In this document: one piece after another, positions 1-62,325 of the stretch
Position numbering within the stretch: the first letter of the stretch is position 1
Layout of the letters: every line of letters starts with the position of its first letter
DNA from: Acidobacteriota bacterium
Lineage (GTDB): Bacteria; Acidobacteriota; UBA6911; RPQK01; JAJDTT01
Length of the DNA stretch: 64,000 nt
Reading direction: 5' to 3'
NCBI GenBank assembly: GCA_965263035.1
Contig: OZ253580.1
Coordinates: 2,432,001-2,496,000, forward strand
The notes under the pieces: generated by a model
What the model was told of the DNA's origin: nothing
Seen by the model: only the letters and a program-made list of their open reading frames with translations
The model's database searches: none
Program-made: the position numbers and the translations under genes

Positions 1-4
1 GTCC

Positions 5-1363
5 CATAAGAGCTAACTAGATTAATATCCCAGAAAGTGGCTATCAACGTGATTGGACCTTCTCCGGGGAGGTTCTTCCAAGGACGCCGAGATTTCGCGC
101 CATTCGGCGAACATGCGTCTCAGGGAATACGCCGGTTCGATGGCTCGCGTGACTTGGTTCAATGCGAATTTGAAGTCACGCCACGGGCTGGGAGTCCTGT
201 CCGGTCGCGACGTCGTATCCCCAGGGGGAAATGGTCCGCGCATGGCGGACCACCTTTTCGACCAGCAGCGCCACCAGCAGCTTGCCGTACAACCAGGCCT
301 GGGCGCTTGCCTCATCGTGCTTCGGCAGGTGCCCGAGCTGGGCCAGGGACTTGAAGCGCTTGAAGACCAGTTCGACTTGCCAGCGCAGGCGGTACCACTC
401 CAGCACTTCGGCCGCTGGGAATTTCTCCGCTGGGTAGGTTGTGAAAACGATGACGAAGCGCGCGAACCGCAGGGTTTCGGGCTGGACCTGCTTGCCCTTG
501 CGCTGAGCCGTCCGACGGATCTTGGCATGCGCGACTTCGATGGCTTCGCCGGTCTTGCGCACCGCGCAGATCCGGCCCGCCACGGGTGGCCCGGACCGGG
601 CCACTGTGCGGACCCTCCAACTGCCGACCGGCCCCGGTCGCAGCAGCGTTTCCACGGCTGCGAGCAGGTCGAACGCTTGGCCGGCCTCGGTTTCCAGCAG
701 CAGCGATCCGGTGTTCACGCGCACCGTCACGGACCCTCCGCCAGCCGCGACGTGCTGAATCCCGACCGCAGTCGAGTAGCCGCGGTCGGCCAGCACGTAG
801 TCGCCCGGCCGGATCGGGAACTGCCTGAACGACTCGCTAGTGCCGCGCCCCTGCGTCGCGGTCAGCTTGAAGAAATCACAGCCGAGCGAAGGCAGGTTGA
901 CGCTGTAGTGAAGGCGCCACACCGACCCGGTCCGGCCGGGCTCGCGCACGGTCGTCGCATCGAACGCCCGCACTTGGAAGCCGGCGCTCTTCGACACCGC
1001 GATGCCATGCTCCCGGAACAGTTCCACGCAGAGGGCGTAGAGCCAGTCGCGGGATTTCCTCAGCCGCTTGAGCAGGGCCACGTCGGACAAATCGGCCAGG
1101 CTCGCTTGCCGAGCCCGCACCACGGTTTCGCGCAAGGAATGCCCGCAGCCGAGATGGATCAGCAGGGTACGCAGCAGGTTTTCCGGCGACTTGTCCTTGC
1201 GCAGTCCCTTCAGGGCTCCGGTCGAGGCCGCCAGATCCAGCCAATTGGCTGGGAAAAATGACACCAGCAAGTCCCAGTCCTCATTCGCAGCCGCATTTAC
1301 TACCGTTCCGCTCATGCCCTCACTATACAAGATAGCGGTCAGGCAATCAGATTAGCGCTTATG
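5..1363 (-). mobile_element. IS4-family (IS186/IS421-like) insertion sequence
   Basis: Terminal inverted repeats CATAAGAGCTAA (5-16) and TTAGCGCTTATG (1352-1363) resemble IS186 ends; encloses a DDE transposase; the right flank GGACGGCGTCC ends in GTCC, matching positions 1-4 (partial target duplication). Confidence 0.85.
176..1330 (-). CDS. IS4-family DDE transposase
   Basis: Motifs FDAT, LADRGY and the YREK signature YRLRWQVELVFKRFKS. Confidence 0.9.
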   Translation of the reverse strand: MYSEGMSGTVVNAAANEDWDLLVSFFPANWLDLAASTGALKGLRKDKSPENLLRTLLIHLGCGHSLRETVVRARQASLADLSDVALLKRLRKSRDWLYALCVELFREHGIAVSKSAGFQVRAFDATTVREPGRTGSVWRLHYSVNLPSLGCDFFKLTATQGRGTSESFRQFPIRPGDYVLADRGYSTAVGIQHVAAGGGSVTVRVNTGSLLLETEAGQAFDLLAAVETLLRPGPVGSWRVRTVARSGPPVAGRICAVRKTGEAIEVAHAKIRRTAQRKGKQVQPETLRFARFVIVFTTYPAEKFPAAEVLEWYRLRWQVELVFKRFKSLAQLGHLPKHDEASAQAWLYGKLLVALLVEKVVRHARTISPWGYDVATGQDSQPVA

Positions 1364-1502
1364 GGACGGCGTCCCCTCTACACTTGCCGCCTACCGAATC
1401 GCATAGCAACTACAGAAGAGCCGGCGGCAAGAAAGCCGCCTCTCCCAGTAGGCGACAAGAAAGTCGCCTCTCCCAGTGGGCGACTGGAAAGTCGCCCCTC
1501 CT
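1364..1502. repeat. Composite REP module (GGGG-N7-CCCC hairpin, linker and 3 REP hairpins)
   Basis: GGCGGCAAGAAAGCCGCC, GGCGACAAGAAAGTCGCC and GGCGACTGGAAAGTCGCC units; the same linker (CTCTACACTTGC...GAATCGCATAGCAAC) occurs at 15140-15200. Confidence 0.85.
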
Positions 1503-1512
1503 ATTTTCTTTC

Positions 1513-1542
1513 TTGACAACTCCGATCGGAATACTGAATAAT
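1513..1542 (+). promoter_or_regulatory. Candidate sigma-70 promoter with palindromic operator upstream of cysH
   Basis: TTGACA (1513-1518), palindrome TCCGATCGGA (1521-1530), AATAAT (1537-1542). Confidence 0.35.
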
Positions 1543-4219: not shown

Positions 4220-4402
4220 ACCCTGGACCGAGAAATCTATAGCGAAAATCGCCGGAGCAATTGGCTTGCGTCCCCGGCGATTCACCCTATGAGCGTCCAG
4301 TTTAGCAGCCCCGGACAACGTGCGTCTCGGTCCGGAGCGGCGACCCTTAGTCGTCGAACTCCGGTGAAGCCATGGGGGGGGAGGGCGACTGGGCGACGGG
4401 AA

Positions 4403-5044
4403 GTCGCGGTAGGGACGCCGGTTGCCCAGCGCCCCCCGCGCAGATCCGTGCGTGCCCGTTAAGGCACACGGCTCCTACCTCAGGTAATGACGGCAGGTCG
4501 CGACGCCCGCCGTATCCGACCCCCGCCTGTGTCACGGTAGCCCGGCTCTGAGTCCGGTCCGTACTTTGGTGAGCCGAATTCCCCTTGGTTCCACCCCTTC
4601 GCTCCACCGACTCCGCAGAGAGTTCCCCCTCCTTGTTCGCCCGCTTCATCACTACTATGGGTGAATCCGATTGCTTCCTCTCTCCCCTCATGGGTTACGG
4701 CTTTCCCCTTTCCCACAAGGCCCCGGCTTTCGCCGGGGAGAGAGTAAGCCCTCCCAGGTCCCGACACCAGATGTACGTACGTGCATGGGTTCTTTGACAC
4801 CGCAGAGCCCGGCTGCCCCTCACCCTGGCGGTCCAGCCGGTGTTGCCTTCGACCGCGACTACAGCCTCGGCACTTCCGATCAGGGAGCTTTCGATGCTCA
4901 ATAGCCTGCCCATACGCACCGCTACCGACGCTTCGCCGACACCCTCACGGGTGCCCACGCACGGCTCGCGGAGAAACGTGGATGGTTAGTCCTTCGTTTC
5001 AGCGGACTTTCACCGCCTATCTTGTGCCAGTTAGCCTGGCGCAC
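4403..5044 (-). mobile_element. ORF-less group II intron, family A (IIB-like), copy A1, inserted in a REP
   Basis: 5' GUGCG; D5 GAGCCGUGUGCCUUAACGGGCACGCACGGAUCU (AGC triad); D6 ending ...CCGCGAC; 642 nt with no RT ORF; flanks rejoin to GGGCGACGGGAA|AGCCGCCGCTCC. Confidence 0.9.
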
Positions 5045-5059
5045 AGCCGCCGCTCCAAG

Positions 5060-48537: not shown

Positions 48538-48571
48538 TTGTCATATGTAGTGTGTAGTATACAGTACACAC
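48538..48571 (+). promoter_or_regulatory. Candidate promoter and palindromic operator of the XRE regulator
   Basis: TTGTCA...TACAGT with inverted repeat GTGTGTA-N8-TACACAC (48550-48571) just before the ATG. Confidence 0.55.
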
Positions 48572-48575
48572 TCGA

Positions 48576-48959
48576 ATGAAGGACGATTCAAGTCGTCCCA
48601 GGGTCGACATGGCGTTTGGAGATTACATTCGAGAAGTTCGGGAGCGGCGACGGCGTGAGGACCGGACTTTCTCGTTAAGGCAAGTCGCAGGCCGCGTCGG
48701 AATCGAGCCGGCCTACCTGAGCAAGATCGAGCGGGGACAGACGCCGCCTCCTTCGGAGCGGACCATCCGCCGGCTCGCGAAGGAGCTGGACGAAGATGCG
48801 GACGTCCTGTTGGCGATGGGGGGGAAGGTTTCCAAGGACCTTCAGGAGATCGTGATGCTCCGTCCCAAGCTCTTCGCCGATCTGCTGCGTCAACTCCGGG
48901 AGGCACCAGATCACGCGGTGCTGCGGGTCGCGCGGGAGATCCGGGACGGGGATTGGTGA
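48576..48959 (+). CDS. XRE-family HTH transcriptional regulator
   Basis: SLRQVAGRVGIEPAYLSKIERG HTH. Confidence 0.9.
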   Translation: MKDDSSRPRVDMAFGDYIREVRERRRREDRTFSLRQVAGRVGIEPAYLSKIERGQTPPPSERTIRRLAKELDEDADVLLAMGGKVSKDLQEIVMLRPKLFADLLRQLREAPDHAVLRVAREIRDGDW

Positions 48960-49004
48960 AGGACAGTGTTGTGGGAACCTGAGGGAACAGGAGAGGAGGA
49001 AAAA

Positions 49005-50000: not shown

Positions 50001-50158
50001 GAGCGGCGGTTTTCTTGCCGCCGATTGGGGGGGGTAGGGGGGACGATTAGTCCCCCCTCCTCTTCGTCTTCTTCCTTCTCAATCCGGAGTGGGCGACAAG
50101 AAAGTCGCCCCTCCCAGCGGGCGGCAAGAAAGCCGCCCGTCCTAGCGGGCGACAAGAA
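49998..50158. repeat. Composite REP module, type 2, with extra units
   Basis: Starts within the TAG stop; the last unit GGGCGACAAGAA is split by intron A2. Confidence 0.85.
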
Positions 50159-50801
50159 GTCGCGGTAGGGACACCGGTTGCCCAGCGCCCCCCGCGCAGA
50201 TCCGTGCGTGCCCGTTAAGGCACACGGCTCCTACCTCAGGTAGTGACGGCAGGTCGCGACGCCCGCCGTATCCGACCCCCGCCTGTGTCACGGTCATCCG
50301 GCTCTGGGTCCGGTCCGTACTTTGGTGAGCCGAATTCCCCTTGGCTCCATCCCTTCGCTCCACGGACTCCGCAGAAAGTTCCCCCTCTTTGTTCGCCCGC
50401 TTCATCACTACTATGGATGTATCCGATTGCTTGCTCTTTCCCCTCATGGGTTACGGCTTTCTCCTTTCCCACGAGGCCCCGGCTCTCGCCGGGGAGAGAC
50501 CAAGCCCTCCCAGGTCCCGACACCAGATGTACGTACGTGCATGGGTTCTTTGACACCGCGGAGCCCGGCCGTCCCTCACCTTGGCGGTCCAGCCGGTGTT
50601 GCCTTCGACCGCGACTACAGCCTCGGCACTTCCGATCAAGGAGCTTTCGATGCTCAATAGCCTGCCCATACGCACCGCTACCGACGCTTCGCCGACGCCC
50701 TCACGGACGCCCACGCACGGCTCGCGGAGAAACGTGGATGGTTAGTCCTTTCGTTTCAGCGGACTTTCACCGCCTATCTTGTGCCAGTTAGCCTGGCGCA
50801 C
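50159..50801 (-). mobile_element. ORF-less group II intron, family A, copy A2
   Basis: Close paralog of A1; flanks rejoin to GGGCGACAAGAA|AGTTGCCCCTCC. Confidence 0.9.
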
Positions 50802-50812
50802 AGTTGCCCCTC

Positions 50813-51487
50813 CTATTCCTTCTCGAAAAGGAGAAACTCCCTTTCTCTCAATCCGGCTCTCCTTGGATTCTCGCGGATATATTCCAGGCACTTCAAAAAG
50901 TGCAGAGGGTGCCGGATCAACCGATCCCAATAGTCTTTCTGCCAGATCTTGGCGTATTTTCCGGTCTTCTGGTTGATCACATGAGCCGTAAATCCCTTCC
51001 AGGATCTGACGATGTCTCTGAGATGATGAGAGCCAAGAGGGCGAAACAGCACATGGACATGGTTGGGCATCACGACGAAGGCGGCCAGTTCGTAACGCCG
51101 GCCGTCGAAATGCCGCAGTGAGTCAGCCACGACTCGGGCCAAGGCCGGATCCTTCAGGAGGCAGAACCCGTTCCCTTGATCCAGCCAGTCCTCGATTCGT
51201 CGAGAGAATTGATTGACGTAGCGTTTCGCCGTCCGCGCATCCCAGGGTCTTGGATGGTGTTTCAACCAGAATCTTCGTTCTTCCCGCCACTGATCCAGTT
51301 TGGCGTGTGGAAGCGAATCTCCCAGCCGCCAAGTCACGAAGACGAAGTGTTCACGCTTGTGCCAATGGGGCAGGCGGTTGTACCAAACGTCAATGGTTCC
51401 AGACTGATCAAAAGAGGAGCCGAAGCTTTCCAGCCACCAATTCTTCGAATCGCATGCCACAAATTTCCTAACGATCCCCTCACCCAA
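50813..51487 (-). CDS. REP-associated tyrosine transposase (RAYT, IS200-like Y1 HUH)
   Basis: LPHW...FVTWRL N-terminus, VVMPNHVH (HUH), SWKGFTA, IWQKDYWDRLIR and YIRENP; REP arrays on both sides; start uncertain. Confidence 0.88.
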   Translation of the reverse strand: MGEGIVRKFVACDSKNWWLESFGSSFDQSGTIDVWYNRLPHWHKREHFVFVTWRLGDSLPHAKLDQWREERRFWLKHHPRPWDARTAKRYVNQFSRRIEDWLDQGNGFCLLKDPALARVVADSLRHFDGRRYELAAFVVMPNHVHVLFRPLGSHHLRDIVRSWKGFTAHVINQKTGKYAKIWQKDYWDRLIRHPLHFLKCLEYIRENPRRAGLREREFLLFEKE

Positions 51488-51927
51488 TCGACGATAGATT
51501 GGGAGTATCCATGTTGCAAGTGGTGGGTGCTAATCGGTGTTTCCATCCCGTGTCGTTAGTACGTGATCTGTCCGGTCCAAAGGGCACAGGGTTAGGAGGA
51601 GCGTTCTTCCGCCGGAGGTGAGGCGGAGATCGAGCTGGATCCAGCGGGCGCCGTGCAGGGGGCGATGAGTGGACCGATAACTGGATCGAGGGACCTGAGA
51701 TCGTCGACGTCAGTCCTCCGGGAGGTCCGGATACGCCCTGGGGAGCGTCGGGTCAAGCCTCCGGCTCCTCCGCTTCGCTGCGGCCCTTCGGGTGACCCGG
51801 CGCTCCCCAGGGCGTGAAGAGCTTTCATGGCCGTAAGCAAGCTTCCGGCCAGACTTGACCGGAAGTTCGACAGACGGCCATCAGGGGGTCCACACGCTCC
51901 CTTTCCTCACGGGGTCTCTCCGTGGCC

Positions 51928-52875
51928 TCAGAAGGTCGCTCGGGGCGCTACGGGCAACCAGGTGCGGTCCTGCCGGACGAGGGTGTTGGCCAGGACGATA
52001 AGCTTGCGCATGACGGCGACGAGGGCCACCTTGCCGGGCTTGCCGCGCTCGCTCAGCCTCCGGTACACCTCGGCCAAGTCGGGGTTCCAGCGCAGGGCGG
52101 CCACCGCCGGCATGTACAGGAGCCGTCGCGCCCGCGCCCGTCCGCCCCGGATGAAGGCCCGGCCCTGCCAAGCCCCCGACTCGCGCGGAACGGCGGCCAG
52201 CCCGGCCAGACTGGCGGCGGCCTTGCCGCTGAGGGCGCCCAGCTCGGGCATCTCGGCCAGCAGACCGGCGGCGGTGGTGGCCGCGATCCCGGGAATGGAG
52301 GTGAGGATCTCCAACTTGCGGGCCCGCGCCTCGTCGGCCGCAATCAGCGTCTGCAATTTGCGGTCGATGGCGCGCAGGTGGCGCTCGAACATGTTGATCT
52401 GGATCTGGTTCTGCTGTTTGAGCAGGGGTTCGCGGAGCTGTCGGCGGCGGTTGAGCGCGGCCGTGCGCTGGCGCATCAGCGCGTCCCGGGACGTCTGCAG
52501 ATCCTGGAGCCGGCGTTGCGTTTTGGACGGCACCTGGGTCCGGCGCGGCTCCAGCGTGGCGGCCAGCTGGGCCAGTTTCCGAGCGTCTACGGCGTCGGTC
52601 TTGGCGCGGCTCCCGGTCGCCTCGGCGAAGCGCCGCGCCTGCCAGGGGTTCACCTTCGCCAGCGGCAGCTTCGCTTTGGACAGCGCTTCCTCGAGGTCCC
52701 GGTGGTAGGGACCGGTGGCCTCGTACGCGATGCACTCGACCGGAGTTCCGATCCAATCAATCAGCGCCCGGAAGCCGGCCGGGTCATTGTCGAACTGGGC
52801 GGAATGGCCGTCGGCCAGCCGGTGCGCGTCCAGGTGCGCTTTCGAGATGTCGATGCCTACGGTATGCTGTTTCAT
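51928..52875 (-). CDS. IS110-family transposase/recombinase
   Basis: VGIDISK, YEATG, AKTDAVDA, SIPGI and PRESG motifs. Confidence 0.94.
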   Translation of the reverse strand: MKQHTVGIDISKAHLDAHRLADGHSAQFDNDPAGFRALIDWIGTPVECIAYEATGPYHRDLEEALSKAKLPLAKVNPWQARRFAEATGSRAKTDAVDARKLAQLAATLEPRRTQVPSKTQRRLQDLQTSRDALMRQRTAALNRRRQLREPLLKQQNQIQINMFERHLRAIDRKLQTLIAADEARARKLEILTSIPGIAATTAAGLLAEMPELGALSGKAAASLAGLAAVPRESGAWQGRAFIRGGRARARRLLYMPAVAALRWNPDLAEVYRRLSERGKPGKVALVAVMRKLIVLANTLVRQDRTWLPVAPRATF

Positions 52876-52879
52876 CTTT

Positions 52880-53040
52880 CCTGTCTCCTGTGCTTGTCAT
52901 TCGGGCCTTGATGCCCTCGTATCCATTCAGGACATCGGGAAAGACGGTGGCCGACCTCACTCCCATACGGTTCGTAACAGTCCGCGGCGGTACGGTCCAG
53001 CCACCGCCGTCCGGGTCGCTCATGAGCGACCCGGACGGCC
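52880..53040 (-). ncRNA. Predicted bridge RNA of IS110-B (ends approximate)
   Basis: 5' hairpin; guides ACCGCCGC (52984-91) and UGGGAG (52960-65) match the target; AUGGAUAC (52919-26) and GACAAG (52893-98) match the donor. Confidence 0.85.
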
Positions 53041-53055
53041 CCATTTAAACAGACA

Positions 53056-53175
53056 AGCGGCGGTTTTCTTGCCGCCGATTCGGGGGGTAGGGGGGACGAT
53101 TAGTCCCCCCCTCCTCTTCGTCTTCTTCCTTCTCGATCCGGAGTGGGCGACAAGAAAGTCGCCCCTCCCAGCGGG
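53056..53175. repeat. Composite REP module, type 2
   Basis: Nearly the same as 50001-50120. Confidence 0.85.
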
Positions 53176-53237
53176 CGGATTCTGTCCACCCCGTCCATTG
53201 GCCGGGTCGGGGTGAGTGGTGATCTGGCTCGGACATC

Positions 53238-53273
53238 TTGACATCACATAGGGGAGTCATCATGATGACTCCC
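53238..53273 (+). promoter_or_regulatory. vapBC promoter with perfect 22-bp palindromic operator
   Basis: TTGACA-N17-CATGAT; GGGAGTCATCATGATGACTCCC (53252-53273) abuts the ATG. Confidence 0.75.
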
Positions 53274-53534
53274 ATGCGGACGACGTTAACTATCGAACCG
53301 GATGTCGCCCAGGTCCTACGGCGAGAGATTCGGCGTTCCGACCGGAGTATGAAAGCCGTGGTGAACGATGCCTTGCGAATCGGTCTCGGGGCGCAGGGCA
53401 AAGCCCCGCGGACGTCTCGATACGAGGTGAATCCCCATGCCTTCGGCTTCAAGCCGGGTATTGACATCTATCGGCTCAATCAACTGGTCGACGAGTTGGA
53501 AGCGGAGGAACTGGGTCGAAATAGTCAACTGTGA
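53274..53534 (+). CDS. vapB: Antitoxin (VapB-like, RHH)
   Basis: MRTTLTIEPDV...VVNDALR; overlaps the PIN gene (GTGA). Confidence 0.8.
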   Translation: MRTTLTIEPDVAQVLRREIRRSDRSMKAVVNDALRIGLGAQGKAPRTSRYEVNPHAFGFKPGIDIYRLNQLVDELEAEELGRNSQL

Positions 53535-53959
53535 TCATTCCCGACGTCAACCTGCTGCTGCACGCCCACAATTCGGACTTTCCGCGACACCGGGAAGCGC
53601 GAGAATGGTGGGAATCCCTGATGAATGGGACCGTCAGCGTCGGACTCCCGTGGGCGTCTATCCTTGGTTTTATCCGCATCGCCACTCAACCGAGAATCCT
53701 CGAGAATCCCCTCGACGTGAGGGGCGCCCGCACTCGCGTCCGGTCTTGGCTCGATCGACCGCAGACAGTGATCATCCATCCGGGAAATCGCCATTCGGAT
53801 ATTCTATTCGATCTCCTCGAGGGGTCTGGTGGCGGCGGCAATTTGACGACCGATGCCCATCTCGCTGCCTTGGCAATCGAGCACCAAGCGGAACTCCACT
53901 CGAACGATGCCGACATGGCTCGATTTCCGGGTCTGCGATGGGTGAACCCACTCGCCTGA
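53531..53959 (+). CDS. vapC: PIN-domain toxin
   Basis: IPDVNLLL, GNLTTDAHLAALAIEH, SNDAD and WVNPL. Confidence 0.9.
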   Translation: MIIPDVNLLLHAHNSDFPRHREAREWWESLMNGTVSVGLPWASILGFIRIATQPRILENPLDVRGARTRVRSWLDRPQTVIIHPGNRHSDILFDLLEGSGGGGNLTTDAHLAALAIEHQAELHSNDADMARFPGLRWVNPLA

Positions 53960-53980
53960 CGTAACCGCCCGATCTGCCTG

Positions 53981-54086
53981 GCGCGGCGGTGTTCCAATCG
54001 CCGGACTCCCGTTGGCGTATTGGAAAGAAAGAATGGGGGACAGAAATGTCTGCACGCCCATGGGAGACAAGAATGTCCCCCCTCCC
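53981..54086. repeat. Degenerate REP units
   Basis: GCGGCGGTGTTCCAATCGCC, GGACAGAAATGTC and GGAGACAAGAATGTCCCCCCTCC. Confidence 0.55.
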
Positions 54087-54140
54087 GGGGGTGAACTATA
54101 ATGGGCCGGGACCCTGCCGGGGGCAGGATCCGCCGGGATC

Positions 54141-54926
54141 ATGTTGAGTTCGCTTCTTCGCCACAGGCACCTGATTCGTGAACTGGTGTCCCGGGACATC
54201 CGGAGCCGCTACGTGGGCTCCGTCGCCGGCCTGTTCTGGTCCATTCTGAATCCGGCTCTGCAACTGGCGCTCTACACGCTGGTCTTCTCACTCTTCCTGG
54301 GGCATCGGTTCGGCAGCGAGGGCTCCACCGGAGTCTTCGCGCTGAATCTCTTCGCCGCCCTGCTCCCCTGGATGGCCATTCAGGAAGGCGTCGTCCGCTC
54401 GGCCCGGACCTTCATCGAGAACGCCAACATCATCAAGAAGCAGCGATTCCCGCTGGAGGCGCTTCCCTTCAGCGTCCTGATCTCGGCCGTCGTGCACCAG
54501 TTGCTGGGGACGGCCGTCTTCCTGGTGGTGCTGGCGGTCACCCAACTGACCGACTTCCGGTTCCTGGTCCTGATCTTCCCCCTCTTCGCGATCCAGATCC
54601 TCATGACCTACGGGCTGGCCGCCATGGCTGCCTCCCTGAATGTCTTCTTCCGCGACGTGGCCCAGCTCCTGGGCGTTCTCTTCATGCTCTTCTTCTGGGT
54701 CACCCCCATCGTCTACCCCCGGAGCCGAGCCCCGGAACCCTACCAGTTCCTCCTCTTCCTGAACCCTCTGACCCACCTGGTGGAGGCCTACCGGTTCGCC
54801 TTCCTGGGAGCGCCGGAACCCTCTCCATGGGGGCTGCTCTACTGGGCAGCCGTGTCCGTCGGATTCTATCGACTGGGGCGTTACGTCCTGGACCGGACCC
54901 GGAACCAGTTGGTGGACCTGTTGTGA
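54141..54926 (+). CDS. wzm: ABC-2 polysaccharide export permease
   Basis: RYVGSVAGLFWSILNP, VFFRD, TPIVYP and LNPL. Confidence 0.88.
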   Translation: MLSSLLRHRHLIRELVSRDIRSRYVGSVAGLFWSILNPALQLALYTLVFSLFLGHRFGSEGSTGVFALNLFAALLPWMAIQEGVVRSARTFIENANIIKKQRFPLEALPFSVLISAVVHQLLGTAVFLVVLAVTQLTDFRFLVLIFPLFAIQILMTYGLAAMAASLNVFFRDVAQLLGVLFMLFFWVTPIVYPRSRAPEPYQFLLFLNPLTHLVEAYRFAFLGAPEPSPWGLLYWAAVSVGFYRLGRYVLDRTRNQLVDLL

Positions 54927-56110
54927 GACCCGCCGTCCGGGCCGTCTCCCTCTCCAAGTTCTACGGGATGCACTGGAGCCCCCGGGGCCTTCTCCGGCAG
55001 GTTATCACCGGAAAGGAGACGGCCCACCGGATCCGGGCCCTGGAGGGGGTCAGCTTCCGGGTCGAGGCGGGCCAGGCCCTGGGAGTGGTCGGCCGGAACG
55101 GTTCGGGAAAGACGACCCTGCTGAAGATGGTGTCGGGCGCCGCCCATCCCAGTTCGGGGCGAGTCGAGGTGGACGGACGGATCGGCGCCCTGCTGGACCT
55201 GGGAGCCGGTTTTCATCCCGAGTTCAGCGGCCGCGAGAACATCCGGTTCAGCGGAGCGCTCATGGGTCTGGAGCCGGACCGGGTCCGGAAAGCGGAGGAC
55301 CGGATCGTGGCCTTCAGCGAGCTGAGGGAATTCATCGACCAACCGATGAGGACCTATTCCGCCGGCATGTACGTCCGCTTGGGCTTCGCCGTCTCCACCG
55401 GATTCCATCCTTCCGTGCTGGTCATCGACGAGGCGCTGGCGGTGGGAGACCAGCCCTTCCAGAAAAAGTGCACGGACCGGATCCTGTCCATCAAGAAGAG
55501 GGGGGCCGCCATCGTGATCTGCTCCCACAACCTCTACCAGATCAAGACCCTTTGCGAGGAGGCGATCTGGCTCCGTGGGGGCCGGCCCCAATCCCAGGGA
55601 GATGCCGTCACGGTGGTGGAGGACTACGGCCGATATCTGGGGCAGGCGTCGTCTCCCCGCGACGGGGGCGCCGACGATGCCGGTTCCGATCCCTCTCTGA
55701 ACTGTAGAATCGAAAGCCTCCGGCTACAGAACGGTTCGGGGTCCGGATGCCAGAGCTTCAGGACCGGCGAGACCTTGCGACTGGAGATCGCCGCCGAGTT
55801 CGCGTCCGACTTCCGGGGACGGCCCAGCCTTCGGGTGGCGATCCGGAGAGACGACGGCCTCACCCTCCACGAAACCCGGACCCGCAGCATTGAAGAGCTG
55901 CAGTTTGTGGGCGGCGGCCGTTACCGGGGGCGGCTCACGTTGCGGGAGATTCCGCTCCTGGCGGGTGGGTATCGGGTTCTGGTTGCCGCGTGCTCTCATT
56001 CGGAGGAGCCGGAGCCGAGGAGCTGGAGGTCTGTTCCGTTCAGCGTGCGCTCCCGGGGACGGGAGTTGGGGGCGGTCCGGATGGAGCATCGTTGGAGCGG
56101 CGGTTTCTGA
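54923..56110 (+). CDS. wzt: Polysaccharide ABC transporter ATPase with Wzt C-domain
   Basis: GRNGSGKTT, YSAGMYVRLGF and DEALAVGD; GTG start overlaps the wzm stop. Confidence 0.88.
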   Translation: MRPAVRAVSLSKFYGMHWSPRGLLRQVITGKETAHRIRALEGVSFRVEAGQALGVVGRNGSGKTTLLKMVSGAAHPSSGRVEVDGRIGALLDLGAGFHPEFSGRENIRFSGALMGLEPDRVRKAEDRIVAFSELREFIDQPMRTYSAGMYVRLGFAVSTGFHPSVLVIDEALAVGDQPFQKKCTDRILSIKKRGAAIVICSHNLYQIKTLCEEAIWLRGGRPQSQGDAVTVVEDYGRYLGQASSPRDGGADDAGSDPSLNCRIESLRLQNGSGSGCQSFRTGETLRLEIAAEFASDFRGRPSLRVAIRRDDGLTLHETRTRSIEELQFVGGGRYRGRLTLREIPLLAGGYRVLVAACSHSEEPEPRSWRSVPFSVRSRGRELGAVRMEHRWSGGF

Positions 56111-56193
56111 CCGCCGGACTCCCCGGAGGGGCGGTTTCCAACCGCCCATTCTTCCGTTCCTCCGGGGAATGGGGGACAAGACTGTCCCCTCCT
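56095..56193. repeat. REP units overlapping the 3' end of wzt
   Basis: GGAGCGGCGGTTTCTGACCGCC contains the wzt TGA; GGAGGGGCGGTTTCCAACCGCC follows. Confidence 0.7.
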
Positions 56194-56373
56194 ATGCCCC
56201 TTCCTGTGAAGATTTCCGATGACCGATCGCACTTTTTCCGCAGTCGTCATAGTAGGTAACGAGCGTTGACAATCGATGACGGGCAACGGAAGAATGCTTC
56301 CTATGGCACGAAACCCCTTGATGGCAAGATGTAGGCGAATCCCGTCTCTCGCCATTAGGTGGAGACCAAGACC

Positions 56374-56703
56374 GTGAATGTTGATCTGATCAGGGTCTTG
56401 GTGGCAGTGGCGGCAGTGGGCGTCGGTCTTGGCGGACTGACGTTGGCCGGCGTGCGAGGGCTGGGTCGCGAAATGCGGGGCCTGCGGCAGGAGACGCGGG
56501 ACGAAATCCAAGGCTTGCGGCAGGAGATGCGGAAGGAAATCCAAGGCCTGCGGCGGGAGACGCGGCACGATATACGGGACATGCGCGGCCACATGGGACG
56601 AATCGATTCCCATATCGGCGAACTCCGGGAACGCATGGGGCACGTGGAAGGACTGTTGAAGGGGTTGCGCGACGCTTTCGTCCAGGGGATCACCCCCAGC
56701 TAG
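56374..56703 (+). CDS. Small membrane-anchored coiled-coil protein (paralog of 62323-62577)
   Basis: NVDLI-TM, 11-aa repeats GLRQE(T/M)R(D/K)EIQ, conserved tail RIDSHIGELRERMGHVEGLLKGLR. Confidence 0.75.
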   Translation: MNVDLIRVLVAVAAVGVGLGGLTLAGVRGLGREMRGLRQETRDEIQGLRQEMRKEIQGLRRETRHDIRDMRGHMGRIDSHIGELRERMGHVEGLLKGLRDAFVQGITPS

Positions 56704-56823
56704 GAGCCTGCGCCGCAGAAATTGATCTACTGCGAAAGCGGTAGAATCGGTCCATATTTCCTCGATTCCCCACTTTCTCGCTACGATCATTTCTACCGCG
56801 CAGACTCCCAGCTCGTAGTGGCG

Positions 56824-56949
56824 AGGAGGGGCGATTTCCAGTCGCCCATCCTTCCGCTCCCCCGTGGGCTCCTTCCCCCATGCTCTTCTGCTCTATTGAT
56901 ATTTGGGAGTGCGGCGACAAGAAAGCCGCCGTTCCCATCGGCGGCAAGA
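56824..56949. repeat. REP units
   Basis: GGAGGGGCGATTTCCAGTCGCC, GGCGACAAGAAAGCCGCCGTTCC and a half unit GGCGGCAAGA. Confidence 0.75.
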
Positions 56950-57581
56950 ATCGGGTCGAGTACAGGGGATTGCGCCCCCGCACCCTCCCACACCACCGGA
57001 CGTACCGTTTTCAGTATCCGGCGGTTGGAGTCACCCGAGGCTCTTTCGAGCCTCGTACAGGGCCTTTCTTTCCGGTTTCCGCCGCCGCTGAGACTTGATC
57101 TCCGCCCTTCCGGCTTGCCGGCCTCCACCCGTGGGCCTTCCATGCCGGGTCCGAGGAGGGTTCCCCTCGCCCCGCTGTCGGAGGTGGTTGCGATCCCGCT
57201 GACGAGTCCACCATAGGGCCAGTCCGACTCCTTCGGTCCTTCGCTCCACCGGCATTACCCGGCTTCTTCGCTACTACGACCTCTGCTGACTTCTCAAGGG
57301 CTCTCACCCTTGAGATCTCCCCGAGTAAGGTGCTGCATCTTTCCCCCCGGGCCGCCCGGCTCTACCTGATGCGTCTGGATGGGGTTCGGGTTTCGCTGTT
57401 GCTCGCCAGCTCACCGCCCGCACCCGGCCTCACTGCCGGTTCGTGTTCCTGCGATCGTGGGTTTGCCTTCCGCTTCCTTCAGCTTCGCCTCGCGGCTTCG
57501 CCTTGCGGTTCGGCTAGGGTTGATCCCATCACCTCCCTTGGGATCTTTCATCCCTTAGATACAGCCCATGTCCGGGCGTAC
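56950..57581 (-). mobile_element. ORF-less group IIC intron, family B, copy B3 (diverged)
   Basis: Paralog of B1/B2; 5' end GUACGCCCGGACAUGGG; 5' exon ends AAGAAAGTCGCCGCTC. Confidence 0.88.
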
Positions 57582-57740
57582 GAGCGGCGACTTTCTTATC
57601 GTCGATTAGGTGGAGGTGGAGGTGGAGTCCCACCTCTACACTTTCCGGCTAGAAGAGGAGGCGGCAAGAAAACCGCCTCTCCCAGCCGGCGACAAGAAAG
57701 TCGCCGCTCCCAGCCGGCGGCAAGAAAGCGGCTGCTCCTG
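57582..57740. repeat. Composite REP module
   Basis: Reverse unit, CTCTACACTTTCC linker and 3 forward AAGAAA-loop units. Confidence 0.8.
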
Positions 57741-57783
57741 TCGTGGAATCGGTCTTGGGGCCGTGATATCGTGCTGGCCAGTC

Positions 57784-59835
57784 ATGGGAGCCGGGAGGGG
57801 AAGTTCGGACGATTCTTCCGGCCTCCGGCGACACCGCGACCTCTACGATCACGACTATTTCCACGGCAAGACCAGCGGGTATCCTTCCGAGGGTTACGCT
57901 CGCGCGCATCCGGAATGGGGCCCCTGGTTGGAGCTGCTGGATGCGCTTCAGCCCAAGGGCCTGCTGCTGGAGTTGGGTTGCGCTTACGGGTATCTGACGG
58001 AGGCGGTCCGAGGCTCCGGCCGGCGGGCGGTGGGCCTGGACCTGAGCGACTACGCCCTCTCCCAGCACGTTCCGGCGCGCCCCTTCCTGGTGCAGGGTGA
58101 CGCCCAGGAACTGCCCTTCGCCAGCGGCTGCGCGCACGTCGTCACCCTGTTCGACCTGCTGGAGCACCTTCCGGACCCGCGCGCCTGCCTCCGGGAGGCG
58201 GTCCGGATCTTGCACCCGGACGGACTCATGGCAGGCGCCACTCCGGACCCTCTCCATTTCCGGCGGCCGGAGCCGACCCACTGCTTCGAGCGCCCCCCCT
58301 CCTTCTGGATCTCGGCCCTGGAGGAGCTGGACCTGGCCGTGACCTACCGCTTCTCCGTGACCCCCTACAACTTCCAGTTCCTGGCGGCGTTCAAGGGGTC
58401 CCCCACGGCGGCGCGGGCGGCGGCGTGGCGCCACGACTACTACGGCCCGGAACGGGATTTCGTCTCCGTCGACGGTCCCCTGGAGGCCCTGCCCCGCTGG
58501 GGCTGGTCGGCATTGGAGTCCGGCTCCCGGGGAATGCAGGGAAACTCCTCGGCCCTCTACCTCCTGAACCGGCTGGCCGGACCGGTCCGTTTCACGACCC
58601 GCTTCTCCGTCTCCTCCTCACCCGACTTCACCACCCTGCGGGTCCGGGCCGGCAGCTCCACGTTGGCCGAGATCCACCTCGACTCGGAGCGAAAGACCAC
58701 CCAGGTGGTGCTCCCCCCCGTCAGCGTGGCCAGCGGCGGGCACCATCTGATCTTCGAACCCTCCCCACTGGGTCCGCGGCTCCACATCCACGACGTGGAG
58801 ATCGACGCCGAGCCCTGTTCCCAGGAGGACCTGGTCCTGGGCCTTCCCTTCGACCTCTACCAGCGCTACCGCCTCGCGGCGCAGGTGGGTTCCGGACTGA
58901 CCCGGGGTCCCATCCTGGACGTGGGCGGCCTGCTGGGGGACCAGGACGGACACCTGGCCACCACGGCGGACTTTTTCTCCGAACTGGAAATGGACGCGCC
59001 CGTACAGGTCCGAACCACCGACCTGAGGCATTGCGACCATCCGGACCACGCTCCGGCCCCGGCCTGGGAGCAGCCCTTCGAAGACGCCTCCTTCGACCTG
59101 GTGCTGGCTCTGGACGTGCTGGAGCATCTGGAACCGGAGCGGCGGCCCGACCTGCTCTCGGAACTGGACCGAGTCGCCCGTTCCTTCATCCTGATCGGCG
59201 CCCCCTTCTCCACCCCGGCCGTGGAGCGGACCGAGGAGGAGCTGGCTCAGGGACTGCTGGACACCCGCCGTTTCCTGGAGGAGCACCGGACCCTGGGGCT
59301 GCCGTCTCTCGACCTGGTGGAGAGTCACTTCGGGGACCGGCCCGAGTATGAGGTCCACCGGTTCCCCAGCGGCTACCTGCCTCGCTGGCGGGCCATGCAG
59401 GTGCTGACGCAGCACTACTTCCAGTTGAACGACACCACCTCCATGACCGCCCTGAACCGTCTCTACAACCAGACCTGTTATGTTCCGGACTTGGCCGAAC
59501 CGTCCTACCGGACCCTTTTCCTGATCTCCAAGACACCCCTCTCTGAAGGCCAACGAAAGGCGTTGGCGGCGCTGCTCCCGGGGCCGGACTCGGATCCCGA
59601 GTCCCCCTGCGGCCTCTCGGAGATTGCCCGGCACTCCCAGTTCCCGAGTCTGCACCAGCGGCTCAGGGAGCTGCTGCAGGAACGGGACGAGGCTTGGCTG
59701 AACACGCGATTCCTCATCAACGAGCGGCAGAAGCTGATCCGGCTGCTGCGCCGCGAGATCCGGCGCCTGCGCACCGAGGTCCCCCTCTGGAAACTGGCGG
59801 TTCTCCGCCTCCGGGACAAACTGAGACGCCGCTGA
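57784..59835 (+). CDS. Tandem SAM-dependent methyltransferase protein with C-terminal coiled coil
   Basis: LELGCAYG/FDLLEHL and LDVGG/LDVLEHL domains. Confidence 0.8.
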   Translation: MGAGRGSSDDSSGLRRHRDLYDHDYFHGKTSGYPSEGYARAHPEWGPWLELLDALQPKGLLLELGCAYGYLTEAVRGSGRRAVGLDLSDYALSQHVPARPFLVQGDAQELPFASGCAHVVTLFDLLEHLPDPRACLREAVRILHPDGLMAGATPDPLHFRRPEPTHCFERPPSFWISALEELDLAVTYRFSVTPYNFQFLAAFKGSPTAARAAAWRHDYYGPERDFVSVDGPLEALPRWGWSALESGSRGMQGNSSALYLLNRLAGPVRFTTRFSVSSSPDFTTLRVRAGSSTLAEIHLDSERKTTQVVLPPVSVASGGHHLIFEPSPLGPRLHIHDVEIDAEPCSQEDLVLGLPFDLYQRYRLAAQVGSGLTRGPILDVGGLLGDQDGHLATTADFFSELEMDAPVQVRTTDLRHCDHPDHAPAPAWEQPFEDASFDLVLALDVLEHLEPERRPDLLSELDRVARSFILIGAPFSTPAVERTEEELAQGLLDTRRFLEEHRTLGLPSLDLVESHFGDRPEYEVHRFPSGYLPRWRAMQVLTQHYFQLNDTTSMTALNRLYNQTCYVPDLAEPSYRTLFLISKTPLSEGQRKALAALLPGPDSDPESPCGLSEIARHSQFPSLHQRLRELLQERDEAWLNTRFLINERQKLIRLLRREIRRLRTEVPLWKLAVLRLRDKLRRR

Positions 59836-60851
59836 TGGGACCGCATCTACCGTCCGAATCGATACCGTCCCGGGGAGAGGCCGGGCCGGACGAAACCGGC
59901 TCACCCATCCCCGCTTCCGTCGTCATCATCAACTACAACGGCCGCCCCTACCTGGAGGAACTGCTCGGTTCCCTGGAACTTCAGACCCGCCGGCCCCTGG
60001 AGACCCTGCTGGTGGACAACGCCTCCCGGGATGACAGTGTCGCCTACGTGCGGAGGGAGTTCCCCTGGGTCCGGATGCTCCCGCAGGAGCGGAACCTGGG
60101 CTTCTCCCGGGCCGCCAACCTGGCTGCCGACGCGGCCCGCGGGACCTGGCTGGCCCTGCTCAACACGGACCTCCGTCTGGAGCCGGAATGGCTGGCGGAG
60201 CTGGTGGCCGCCGCCGGGACGGACCCCTCCATCGCCGCCGTCTCCTCCAAGCTGAGGCTTTACGATCAGCCTCACCGGCTCAACGGGGTGGGGGGCTGCA
60301 TGAACCGGCTGGGCTACACCTGGGACCGGGGGATGGGGGAGGAGGACCGGGGCCAATACGACCAGAGCCGGGAAGTGCTGTTCGCCTGCGCCGGCGCCGC
60401 CCTGTTCCACCGGTCCCGCTTCCGGGAGGCGGGCGGATTCGATTCGCGCTTTTTCATGTACCACGAGGACGTGGACCTCTGTTGGCGGCTCTGGCTGCGG
60501 GGATTCCGGGTGGTCACGGCGCCCAGGGCGGTCGCCTACCATCACCTGAGCGCCTCCACCCGGGAGGACCGGGGCCTGCTCTGGCGGGAGATCCTGGGCG
60601 AGCGCCACAACCTGCGCACCCTGCTCAAGAACTACGAGTGCGCCAACCTGGCGCGAGCCCTCTGGGGACTCCTGACGCTGCGGCAGCCGGCGCGCCGCAA
60701 ATGGGCGCAGTTGGGAAACCTGGCGTGGAACCTGCGGCGGCTTCCCGAGACGCTGCGGCTGAGGCGCCGCATTCAGCGGGAGCGGCGGGTGCCGGACGCA
60801 CAACTGAAACGCCTTGTCGTACAATCGCGCCATGTCCCCATCCCCCGGTGA
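59835..60851 (+). CDS. GT2-family glycosyltransferase
   Basis: INYNG, VDNASRD, NLGF and GGFDSRFFMYHEDVDLCWR. Confidence 0.9.
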   Translation: MGPHLPSESIPSRGEAGPDETGSPIPASVVIINYNGRPYLEELLGSLELQTRRPLETLLVDNASRDDSVAYVRREFPWVRMLPQERNLGFSRAANLAADAARGTWLALLNTDLRLEPEWLAELVAAAGTDPSIAAVSSKLRLYDQPHRLNGVGGCMNRLGYTWDRGMGEEDRGQYDQSREVLFACAGAALFHRSRFREAGGFDSRFFMYHEDVDLCWRLWLRGFRVVTAPRAVAYHHLSASTREDRGLLWREILGERHNLRTLLKNYECANLARALWGLLTLRQPARRKWAQLGNLAWNLRRLPETLRLRRRIQRERRVPDAQLKRLVVQSRHVPIPR

Positions 60852-62154
60852 CGTCTCGGTCGTCACCGTCAACTGGAACGGGAAATCCCACCTGTCCACC
60901 CTGCTTCCGCCCCTGCTGGCGCTGGGTCCGGGAGAGGTCATCGTGGTGGACAACGGGAGCACCGACGGCTCCCAGGGGTTCCTCAGGAAGCGCTATCCCC
61001 AGGTCCGGCTCTTGGAGAACGGAGTCAACCGCGGCTTCGCTCAACCCTGCAACCTGGGCGTCGAAACGGCCCGGGGGGCGCATGTCGCCTTCATCAACAA
61101 CGACATGCGCCCCGAACCGGACTGGCTGACCGCCGCCCTGGGGAAGTTGGACGCCCAGACCCCCTGCGTCGCCTCCCGGATCCTGGACTGGGAGGGGCGG
61201 CGGATCGACTACAACGGATCGTCCCTCCACTACCTGGGCTACGGGTTGCAGGAGGATCTGGGCTTGCCCGTCGAGGAGGCGCCGCGCCGGGACCAGGTCC
61301 TGTTTCCGTGCGGCGGAGCCATGCTGGTGGACCGGACGGTCTTCCTGGAAGTGGGAGGGTTCGACGCCGATTTCTTCGCCCTTTTCGAGGACGTGGACCT
61401 GGGTTGGCGGCTCTGGCTGGCCGGTCATCGGGTGGTCATGGCCCCGGATTCGGTGGTGCGCCACCGGGGTCATGCCACCTTGGAGACCCAAGCGCCGGAG
61501 AAGACCCGGTATCTGATGCACCGGAACGCCCTGCTGACCATCTTCAAGAACTACGACGAGGAGAACTTCCGCAAGATCGTGCCCTTGGCCCTCGTCCTCT
61601 CGGTGAAGCGGGCGGTGCACTTCTCGGGAGTCCGCAAGGAGAGCTTCTACCTCTGGTCCGAGACCCGTCACAAGCTGGACGAAGGAGACGAGACCGCACG
61701 GTCGCAGTTGCTGGACTCGTTGAACCACCTGGTGGCCGTGGACGACGTGCTCCAGGCTCTGCCCCGGTTGGTGGAGAAACGCCGCCGGGTGCAGGCGCTT
61801 CGCCGGCGGAGCGACCGGGAGATCATGGAACTGTTCGGAGACCCCCTGCGCCGGATCGTGGAGGACCCGGTCTACGTCAAGGAGGAACTGGAGCTGCTGG
61901 AAGCGCTGGATCTGGGGTCGTTGCTGGATCCAGGCCCCAGCGCGACGTCCCTGGATTCCCTGCCGGGGGCCCTGCGGGAAAAGATCCGGTCATTGGAGAA
62001 GGAGTTGAATGCACTCCGGTGGTTGGGGTCTCAAGCCACTCTCCACCCGCCCGACCCGCCGGGGCTGGCCTCACGGTTCTTCCGCACTGCCCGCCGGGAG
62101 GGCCTGAAAGTCGCGTGTCTCCGGGCGTTCGACTACGTCAATCGAGCGGTGTGA
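60832..62154 (+). CDS. GT2-family glycosyltransferase
   Basis: VNWNG, VDNGSTD, FINND and GGFDADFFALFEDVDLGWR. Confidence 0.9.
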   Translation: MSPSPGDVSVVTVNWNGKSHLSTLLPPLLALGPGEVIVVDNGSTDGSQGFLRKRYPQVRLLENGVNRGFAQPCNLGVETARGAHVAFINNDMRPEPDWLTAALGKLDAQTPCVASRILDWEGRRIDYNGSSLHYLGYGLQEDLGLPVEEAPRRDQVLFPCGGAMLVDRTVFLEVGGFDADFFALFEDVDLGWRLWLAGHRVVMAPDSVVRHRGHATLETQAPEKTRYLMHRNALLTIFKNYDEENFRKIVPLALVLSVKRAVHFSGVRKESFYLWSETRHKLDEGDETARSQLLDSLNHLVAVDDVLQALPRLVEKRRRVQALRRRSDREIMELFGDPLRRIVEDPVYVKEELELLEALDLGSLLDPGPSATSLDSLPGALREKIRSLEKELNALRWLGSQATLHPPDPPGLASRFFRTARREGLKVACLRAFDYVNRAV

Positions 62155-62159
62155 AGGGT

Positions 62160-62325
62160 AGGAGAAGCGGCGGCATCGTTGCCGCCGGATAGGAGCGGCG
62201 GCTTTCTTGCCGCCGATTAGGGGGGGTTAGGGGGGACGGTTAGTCCCCCCTCCTCTTCGTCTGTCCGGAGCAGGCGACAAGAAAGTCGCCTGTCCCAGTG
62301 GGCGACAAGAAAGTCGCCCCTCCTA
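62160..62325. repeat. Composite REP module, type 2, between convergent genes
   Basis: 2 reverse and 2 forward units around a GGGGGGACGGTTAGTCCCCCC hairpin. Confidence 0.85.

Follow-up and report, generated by a model that had tools for sequence, protein, structure and literature searches.

We examined a 64,000-nucleotide stretch of an Acidobacteriota genome (contig OZ253580.1, positions 2,432,001 to 2,496,000; G000:C1:2432001-2496000), referred to here as the window, in which copies of one repetitive extragenic palindromic (REP) repeat are occupied by five families of mobile elements. The genome is a single contig of 6.198 Mb with ∼63% G+C, and the window makes up 1.03% of it. The occupants are two families of group II introns (introns A and B), two IS110-family insertion sequences (IS110-X and IS110-Y) and an IS4-family element, and a gene for a putative REP-associated tyrosine transposase (RAYT) lies among them. 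We located the following features with an Rfam ribozyme scan, a BLAST search of the window against its own genome, and Pfam and NCBIfam protein scans (ORF, open reading frame):

6-1362, minus strand: IS4-family element with its transposase ORF at 176-1330 (minus strand); the right 13-bp target duplication is at 1363-1375, and the left one begins 7 bases ahead of the window and ends at position 5.
1423-1501, plus strand: array of three REP units beside the IS4 element, part of a composite module.
4391-4402, plus strand: left REP half (GGCGAC-GGGAA) at intron A copy 1.
4403-5044, minus strand: intron A copy 1, 642 nt, ORF-less; Rfam RF02005, 165.4 bits (4788-5010).
5045-5056, plus strand: right REP half (A-GCCGCC-GCTCC) at intron A copy 1.
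15219-15240, plus strand: REP core followed by GCTC, which serves intron B copy 1 as its 5' exon.
15241-15870, plus strand: intron B copy 1, 630 nt, ORF-less; Rfam RF02001, 81.4 bits, and RF01998, 47.2 bits (15322-15585).
23916-24545, minus strand: intron B copy 2, 630 nt; 5' exon (REP and GCTC) at 24546-24567 (minus strand), Rfam span 24201-24464.
24661-24678, plus strand: left target of IS110-X, a REP core whose final two bases make up the CC core.
24679-26396, plus strand: IS110-X; left end with putative bridge-RNA guides at 24679-24911, REP tail CCTCC at 26397-26401.
48410-48520, no strand assigned: empty composite module (reverse REP, G-run, GGGG hairpin, forward REP).
50000-50158, no strand assigned: composite module and REP array 3' of the RAYT gene, ending in the left REP half (50147-50158) split by intron A copy 2.
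50159-50801, minus strand: intron A copy 2, 643 nt; Rfam RF02005, 166.5 bits (50544-50767).
50802-50813: right REP half at intron A copy 2, AGTTGCC-CCTCC, with a one-base overlap with the RAYT stop codon.
50813-51487, minus strand: RAYT-like Y1 (HUH) transposase ORF; Pfam Y1_Tnp, 35.1 bits (cut-off 23).
51506-53057, minus strand: IS110-Y copy 1; transposase 51928-52875, left end with guides 52876-53057, target REP core 53059-53076.
56950-57581, minus strand: intron B copy 3, 632 nt, with ∼93-95% identity to the other copies; decayed REP and GCTC at 57582-57605, Rfam span 57236-57499.
62192-62325, no strand assigned: composite module plus a pair of REPs, where the finding ends.
62775-64000, minus strand: IS110-Y copy 2, cut by the window end and without 75 bp that are present in the right end of copy 1.

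The REP core, GGCG[AG]CAAGAAAG[CT]CGCC, has 170 exact matches genome-wide (92 and 78 on the two strands) and 274 when up to two mismatches are allowed, 29 of them inside the window. It is followed by a (G/C/T)CTCC tail, with C in 138, T in 165, C in 161 and C in 148 of the 170 exact matches at positions +19 to +22. Once sister loops are included, strict hairpins number 398 (TGGAA, 149; TAGAA, 25; TGGAAA, 14; others), so that the shared repeat GGCGRC-AAGAAA-GYCGCC-(S)CTCC proposed in an earlier reading of this stretch, the original prediction, is real. The tails of these hairpins are GCTCC (171), CCTCC (108), GCTCG (19), GCTTG (10) and TGTAC (4), of which the last three mark where intron B, IS110-Y and IS110-X join the hairpin; the 171 GCTCC-tailed REPs are free and unoccupied. 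The hairpins are often built into arrays, and REPs also recur in a composite module made of a reverse REP, a G-run, a GGGG hairpin, a spacer and a forward REP; the pattern of its GGGG hairpin has 48 intact matches in the genome, compared with 1 for a reversed control. Given that REPs together with 40 bp on either side cover 0.63% of the genome, the association rates reported below cannot be due to chance.

Intron A occurs in seven genome copies of 642 to 645 nt, all ORF-less. It starts with GTGCG and scores above the gathering score of RF02005, and its domains V-VI match RF00029 with 36.9 bits, just below the gathering score of 40 (E about 1e-5). In the orientation of the intron, its junctions (marked ^) read ...GGAG(G/C)GGCGRCT ^ GTGCG...CCCTACCGCGAC ^ T(T/C)C..GTCGCC, with CGCGAC at the intron end, and on the AAGAAA strand of the REP this site is AAGAA^A. 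Removing the intron restores GGCGAC-TTTCTT-GTCGCC or its TTCCA or TTTCCC loop variant in six of the seven copies; the seventh lies in a decayed hairpin. A candidate exon-binding site 1 (EBS1), AGTCGC at intron positions 185-190, is complementary to GCGACT, the last six exon bases. Across 26 copies from three genomes (the 7 here and 19 fetched from two congeners), EBS1 and its partner in the exon, intron-binding site 1 (IBS1), form the combinations AGTCGC/GCGACT, AATCGC/GCGATT, AGTCCC/GGGACT (7 copies), GGTCGC/GCGACC and GGGTGC/GTGCCC, with six of six positions in Watson-Crick or G-U pairs in 23 copies and five of six in the other 3. The GGGACT exons are hairpins of a second REP family. These data support the notion that intron A reads the REP by base pairing, with a putative EBS1 that changes with the REP stem across genomes; EBS2 and EBS3 were not found convincingly. 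This genome has no relative of intron A that bears an intron-encoded protein (IEP); the intron is non-autonomous and, if it moves, would need a protein supplied by another element. It is multicopy in at least four congeners. Intron A-like ORF-less matches number at least 12 among those listed for genome G005, at least 13 for G002 and more than 15 for G007; in G002 and G007 many of them cover just the first ∼560 nt of the intron.

Intron B is found in ∼22 ORF-less copies of 630 to 632 nt and in two full-length copies elsewhere in the genome. Its 5' junction reads REP and GCTC ^ GTGCG, and RF02001 and RF01998 both score above their gathering scores; in copy 1, a match to RF00029 that ends at 15870 reaches 39 bits, just below the threshold of 40 (E about 1e-5). 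The two full-length copies, 89 to 92% identical, encode a 497-amino-acid reverse transcriptase (RT)-maturase that contains the RVT_1 and GIIM domains only and no endonuclease domain. A fuzzy search for the intron 5' end gave 24 matches, 23 of them true 5' ends; window copy 3 escaped this pattern. A hairpin and GCTC precede every one of the 23, the hairpin being an AAGAAA REP in 18, a TGGAA REP in 1, GGGGGT..ACCCCC in 2, GGGGAC..GTCCCC in 1 and unrelated in 1. Four of the 23 hairpins are therefore neither AAGAAA nor TGGAA REPs, and three belong to the REP family of a second RAYT gene (see below). On the 3' side the flank is not REP-derived beyond a single base, which corrects the original prediction: this base is C in 23 of 24 copies, and the further 3' flanks are unrelated between copies. 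No EBS1 was found convincingly for intron B. At window copy 3 (56939-56950), the 3' exon starts with TCTTGCCGCC, the right-hand portion of a REP split where intron A inserts; on the plus strand the intron is preceded by GGCGGCAAGAA, and the base after the intron is T instead of C. This junction could be a rearrangement or a hybrid site. Two intron B copies (3067.9-3069.7 and 3923.5-3925.2 kb of the genome) contain an IS3-like element of ∼12 copies as a nested insertion, and intron A adjoins one of these two loci.

The transposase of IS110-X probably spans 24912-26159 (plus strand; alternative start at 24723) and matches Pfam DEDD_Tnp_IS110 (PF01548, 119 bits) and Transposase_20 (PF02371, 60.4 bits) as well as the NCBIfam model "IS110 family RNA-guided transposase" (NF033542, 189.4 bits; cut-off 140). 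The element is present in four full copies and one fragment. Its junctions read ..GCCG[CC] ^ TGTACCC...GGGAAGT[CC] ^ CCTCC, with a REP-type 3' stem followed by TGTACCC in five of five left flanks and GGGAAGT-CC-CCTCC at the right end of all four full copies. In the consensus fold of the 233-nt left end (alifold, four sequences), a hairpin precedes two stem-loops that contain internal loops. The first of these loops carries AAAGCCGC, identical to the left target (the REP 3' stem), and GGAGGGG, the reverse complement of the CCCCTCC tail; the second carries GGGAAGTC, which matches the element at its right end, and GTACAGG, whose reverse complement, CCTGTAC, lies at the left end of the element. 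All four guide words occurred together in none of 20,000 shuffles of the left end. The left guide equals the element's own left target in all five copies, and it does so with three guide variants: AAAGCCGC at targets ending in AAAGCCGCC (two copies), AAAGTCGC at a target ending in AAAGTCGCC (one copy), and AATGTCCC at targets ending in AATGTCCC (two copies, in elements that are 85% diverged). The AATGTCCC target belongs to the hairpin family that flanks the second RAYT gene.

IS110-Y encodes a protein of the same type (Pfam DEDD, 81.2 bits, and Transposase_20, 68 bits; NF033542, 207.1 bits against the cut-off of 140), with junctions GGG[AG] ^ TATCC...ACA[AG] ^ CGGCGG, which correspond to the CT of GCTCC on the opposite strand. 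Its 182-nt left end folds with a z-score of -6.1, with a predicted target loop and a less clear donor loop, and contains in order the guide words ACCGCCGC, ATGGGAG, ATGGATAC and GACAAG; again, all four were recovered in 0 of 20,000 shuffles. The left guide matches the left target at eight of eight positions in 12 of 13 copies and at seven of eight in the remaining one. Judged by their left-end junctions, these 13 copies target eight canonical REPs (four AAGAAA, four TGGAA), one decayed REP, one other short hairpin and, in three cases, an ACCGACG target in another repeated sequence, where the guide is ACCGACGC; five copies thus lie at hairpins or repeats other than AAGAAA/TGGAA REPs. The element has two forms, which differ by the 75 bp (window 51740-51815 versus 63010) in the 422-nt right end 3' of the transposase. 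Both IS110 elements lack terminal inverted repeats, and their junctions show no target duplication beyond the core; the Rfam scan of the window matched no family to either left end. Taken together, the guides support the view that the left ends of IS110-X and IS110-Y encode putative bridge RNAs whose left target guide covaries with the REP variant entered.

The fifth occupant, the IS4-family element, has terminal inverted repeats ATAAG.GCTAA and a transposase recognized by Pfam DDE_Tnp_1 (61.6 bits) and NCBIfam transpos_IS4_1 (147.5 bits; cut-off 115). On either side lies the 13-bp duplication GGGACGGCGTCCC, and in both IS4 copies of the genome the duplicated 13 bp are the GGGG hairpin of the composite module. 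The second copy, located elsewhere, is flanked by GGGACGGAGTCCC, and the hairpin loops of the two sites differ (GGCGT versus GGAGT). Target duplications of the IS4 family are typically about 9 to 13 bp long.

Reading these junctions confirmed that the five elements sit where they had been predicted to sit, namely in the loop (intron A), at the CC of the stem base (IS110-X), at the CT of GCTCC (IS110-Y), after GCTC (intron B) and in the GGGG hairpin (IS4). The genome-wide junction check proposed at the time agrees, with most copies lying at REP-type hairpins: six and one decayed of seven for intron A, 23 of 23 after a hairpin and GCTC for intron B (one of these hairpins being unrelated), five of five for IS110-X, eight and one decayed of 13 for IS110-Y, and two of two for IS4. 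Some details needed revision. Both intron families are ORF-less ribozymes, of 630 to 643 nt; the IS110-B of the original prediction, here IS110-Y, has two window copies; and the claim that all elements enter the same repeat does not extend to the 5 of 13 IS110-Y and 4 of 23 intron B copies found in other hairpins or repeats.

According to the literature, RAYTs make and spread REP repeats. The RAYT ORF of the window reaches 73.9 bits with NCBIfam REP_Tyr_transpos, below the cut-off of 80. It contains the HVH of MPNHVHVLF and a downstream Tyr in KDYWDRLIR, which we take to be its catalytic motifs. Relatives, aligned over about residues 25 to 220, occur in many phyla, and the nearest are in records titled Acidobacteriota. 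As predicted, the gene lies between two REP arrays, with REPs at 50005, 50092, 50120 and 50147 on one side and at 53059 and 53146 on the other; their orientation is opposite around the gene, forward at 50092, 50120 and 50147 (the last one split) and reverse at 53059. A second RAYT-like gene outside the window (genome 3477.8-3478.4 kb) shows 76% DNA identity to the first and an apparent in-frame stop. Hairpins of another family (GGGGGT-TGAAA-ACCCCC-GCTCC and GGGGAC-ATCCTT-GTCCCC), all oriented alike, lie on both sides of it; this family is also used by intron B, by the diverged IS110-X copies and by the intron A relatives in G005. The RAYT presumably maintains or supplies the REP sites.

Other mobile elements of this genome do not share the preference. 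Among 18 other repeat families, just two have any copies close to a REP (2 of 18 copies and 1 of 4 copies); an insertion sequence with inverted repeats was at REPs in 0 of 16 copies, and an IEP-bearing intron, intron C (RF02003), in 0 of 4. A cluster of 143 repeat regions, when dissected, resolved into known families, the inverted-repeat insertion sequence and an 18-member family. That abundant insertion sequence (∼20 copies, e.g., genome 52596-54339; 1.75 to 2.0 kb) has inverted repeats CCCAGATTATTCATGG and unrelated flanks that are never REPs. Copies of intron C adjoin it at one end.

We also classified, genome-wide, the sequences that split or follow REP cores, and three candidates for further occupants were rejected: CCTCC-TTGTTTCTTAGAAGA (11 copies) is conserved sequence that flanks a second composite repeat, GGGCTACG-AGTCGCC (11 copies) lies within an IS3-like transposase gene, and GGCGGTTGGA-GTCAC (24 copies) lies within intron B.

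Related genomes show what such sites look like when they are empty. The two genes on either side of intron B copy 2 and IS110-X are ∼150 to 420 bp apart in seven of eight congeners and 1,538 bp apart in the eighth, compared with 2,483 bp here, and all six of the congener intergenic regions that were read contain REP arrays or composite modules without intron B and IS110-X. Genome G006 has uninterrupted counterparts of both sites; at the IS110-X site it reads ...GTCGCTCCTCC-GTCAGCG..., where the present genome has ...GCCGCC[IS]CCTCC-AGCGTCAGC. In G003, an intact REP lies at the 3' end of the orthologous RAYT gene, the position of intron A here. The G003 locus upstream of the RAYT gene was considered as an empty IS110-Y site and rejected, as there is no REP there. 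The REPs thus pre-exist the elements, because the flanks of the copies differ, the IS4 duplications differ, and both intact, free hairpins and element-free arrays exist. This bears out the predicted restoration of a REP upon removal of an element, and it makes travel of the halves with the elements very unlikely.

The window holds other repeats as well. A 128-bp sequence at 56687-56814 has ∼152 further genome copies and by far the highest contig depth in all four public sequencing runs that we consulted; it looks like a miniature inverted-repeat transposable element and unrelated to the REP family. A 1,191-bp segment at 38738-39928, which lies beside a tRNA cluster, is 99.7% identical to genome 2710834-2712024, and we would guess at a duplicated housekeeping gene such as tuf. 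Tandem-like repeats occur within long ORFs at 18628-18853 (offset ∼52 bp) and 41893-42110 (offset 33 to 45 bp).

We consider it probable that five unrelated element families have each specialized on one RAYT-associated REP, each at a different few nucleotides. The insertion positions, the prior existence of the REPs, and the guide sequences with their covariation are directly visible in these genomes. In the proposed mechanism, intron A would reverse-splice into the GGCGAC-TTTCTT-GTCGCC strand, after the first T of the loop, with its EBS1 AGTCGC pairing with the exon bases GCGACT. Intron B would be an ORF-less deletion derivative of the RT-maturase-encoding intron, entering after a DNA hairpin and GCTC as class C introns do at terminators and attC sites, and presumably mobilized in trans by the RT-maturase of the full-length copies. 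IS110-X would act as a bridge-RNA-guided recombinase, with AAAGCCGC as its 5' guide, a 3' guide complementary to CCCCTCC and two further guides that match its own ends, recombining at the CC of the stem base. IS110-Y would work in the same mode, using ACCGCCGC and ATGGGAG as guides, its core being the CT inside GCTCC, and the IS4 element would be a conventional DDE transposon that duplicates the 13-bp GGGG hairpin of the composite module. The suggestion that the elements read the REP by base pairing is borne out for intron A, IS110-X and IS110-Y, through covariation. REPs are presumably favored because they are numerous and harmless to hit. The five families may form one system, or they may be five independent specializations on the commonest intergenic hairpin.

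Several observations weigh against this explanation or narrow it. The IS4 case consists of two copies only. The right-target matches of IS110-Y are generally loose (5 to 7 of 7, read by eye), and the right flank of window copy 2 agrees with the 3' target guide at just two of seven positions (likewise by eye), which could reflect an off-target event or a later rearrangement. The three ACCGACG copies of IS110-Y may be one insertion copied thrice, in which case their covariation would count as a single event, and the C that follows intron B may belong to the intron and not to the exon. For intron A, the EBS1 assignment is a putative one, made from a 6-nt complement and covariation and not from a full secondary-structure model, and the genome holds no cognate protein: its eight RT matches are intron B-like, belong to intron C or, in one case, are weak and unrelated. 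The RAYT scores below its NCBIfam cut-off, and its activity is putative. The element-free loci come from other species (∼88 to 93% identity), whose REP arrays are not alignable unit by unit, so that "empty" is a qualified term for them. The empty REP alleles sought by the original prediction were recovered as element-free arrays at one orthologous locus in six of six congeners; the contigs of four public runs (X9, X11, X12 and X13), compared with window 48000-57900, gave no clean empty allele; these contigs break at repeats, and their joints have sides of only 20 to 34 letters between look-alike REP modules, too short to be informative. One X11 contig (record 3) spans the RAYT gene and departs from the window sequence at 50802 (18 letters) and at 51499 (27 letters), which could represent an element-free allele.

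Could the REP halves instead be parts of the elements that travel along with them, making the REP siting just apparent? The right junction of IS110-Y is always ...ACAAG-CGGCGG and the right end of IS110-X is GGGAAGTCC-CCTCC, both resembling a piece of a REP, and many intron B copies share up to ∼60 nt of a common upstream composite module. However, the stems (GGCGAC, GGCGGC, GGCAAC) and loops (TTTCTT, TTCCA, TTTCCC) vary between copies, the IS4 duplication is unlike in its two copies, identical modules are empty in this genome and at orthologous loci, and the guide logic assigns the REP bases to the target and not to the donor. This idea is largely refuted already, and we give it hardly any credence. 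Somewhat less remote, though still quite unlikely, is that there is no real targeting and that the elements insert widely and survive solely in neutral REPs. REPs are intergenic and presumably harmless to hit, and for the two IS4 copies nothing speaks against such a filter. Survival alone would not produce one exact nucleotide and one orientation per family, nor would it explain why elements encode site-complementary guides that covary with the site, and other insertion sequence and intron families persist outside REPs in the same genome.

Intron A invites a more particular alternative, in which it is no retroelement and spreads as the giant loop of a single-stranded REP hairpin mobilized by the RAYT, or through duplication of REP arrays. 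The genome has no cognate RT gene, the two arms of one REP hairpin bracket each copy, and one copy adjoins the RAYT gene, all of which fit such transfer. The arms, however, are often mismatched (e.g., GGCGGC...GTCGCC and GGCGGC...GCTGCC), the copies have unrelated flanks outside the REP, and EBS1 follows the 5' arm from one REP family to another, which reverse splicing enforces and RAYT transfer would not unless splicing were selected; we therefore regard this route as very improbable. The possibility that intron B, and perhaps the IS4 element, read DNA structure, i.e., any stable hairpin followed by GCTC with REPs merely the most numerous, is for us evenly poised. Four of the 23 intron B copies follow quite different hairpins while GCTC ends all 23 flanks, and class C introns use terminator and attC hairpins (PMC4424553). 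Against this, 20 of 24 intron B copies are at REPs of two related loop types (the one decayed REP included), and three more are at the REPs of the second RAYT. Structure reading would in any case refine the specialization of five families on one REP rather than contradict it.

A bolder version of that specialization is one that we hold tentatively, with slightly more doubt than belief. Bacterial group II introns would then have REP hairpins as a fourth kind of natural target, beside homing sites, terminators and attC; intron A would be a genus-wide ORF-less REP-loop family, retargeted via six EBS1 bases and moved by a noncognate RT-maturase; and RAYT-generated repeats would form a shared, evolving address space, split nucleotide by nucleotide among RNA-guided elements.

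REPs are usually viewed as RAYT products or as regulatory hairpins, and here one family, to which five element families are confined, organizes much of the mobilome. The three RNA-guided families appear to have been naturally reprogrammed against REP variants, providing a data set on the retargeting of bridge RNAs and of EBS1. REPs would also be added to the few structured DNA motifs that group II introns use, and intron A is a proliferating ORF-less intron without a cognate protein. With 642 nt and a 6-nt address, it is a candidate for targeting studies, together with the two compact IS110 elements, for which natural targets and guide variants are at hand.

Tobes and Pareja (2006, BMC Genomics 7:62; PMC1525189) report five insertion sequence families (IS3, IS110, IS4, IS256 and IS5) that target REPs, including ISPpu9 (7 of 7) and ISPpu10 (7 of 7) in Pseudomonas putida and the REP-specific ISRm22 (IS4; 9/9 to 10/10), ISRm19 (IS110) and ISRm5 in Sinorhizobium meliloti. 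Our genome is alike in having several REP-specific elements, with an IS4 member in palindromic REP sites. It differs in that two group II introns are near-completely at REPs (the P. putida intron listed there, 2 of 9), in that five positions are mapped within one 23-nt unit and its composite module, and in a host outside the Proteobacteria surveyed (PMC1525189). For IS110 elements, Durrant et al. (2024, Nature 630:984; PMC11208160) showed that the IS621 bridge RNA directs insertion into REPs, with 144 of 173 mapped insertions. IS110-X and IS110-Y share with IS621 the DEDD and Tnp_20 recombinase, a left-end RNA with target and donor loops, and the guide order and strand logic. Unlike the IS621 case, two diverged elements here read distinct parts of one REP, with a CC core and a CT core, and the guides, known from sequence alone, appear diversified within the genome after REP variants, including those of the second RAYT (PMC11208160). 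A 2026 preprint on ISPpu10 (bioRxiv 10.64898/2026.03.19.712850) describes a "sequence-structure dual match" in which a target stem-loop is recognized; a GC-rich stem-loop 5' of the paired bases in a repeated intergenic target is common to both cases, as the left targets of IS110-X and IS110-Y are, by sequence geometry, the 3' arm of the REP stem.

For the introns, Zimmerly and Semper (2015; PMC4424553) name just three kinds of bacterial intron target (homing sites, terminators and attC) and describe bacterial ORF-less introns as rare and usually located beside related IEP-bearing introns. Likened by its insertion geometry and IEP domains, intron B resembles class C (IIC) introns in its 5' hairpin and short exon motif, its variable 3' exon and its endonuclease-less RT-maturase, and differs from them in that the hairpins are REPs and most copies are ORF-less (PMC4424553). 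Intron B has many ORF-less copies beside few IEP-bearing ones, implying trans mobilization, and in this it is like the introns of Thermosynechococcus. Mohr et al. in 2010 reportedly described those as proliferated ORF-less group II introns. Intron A departs from them, being without a related IEP-bearing copy in the genome, and the targets here are REPs instead of diverse sites.

Apart from the 2-of-9 entry in PMC1525189, we found no paper on REP-specialized group II introns in a literature that was incompletely covered. The original prediction knew of no description of such a combination; in part this does not stand, as REP targeting by several insertion sequence families per genome and the reading of REPs by bridge RNAs are already published, whereas the REP-specialized introns and the five-way partition of the repeat look new. 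Overall, we see at this locus a striking variation on a phenomenon already known, and not a system of a new kind.

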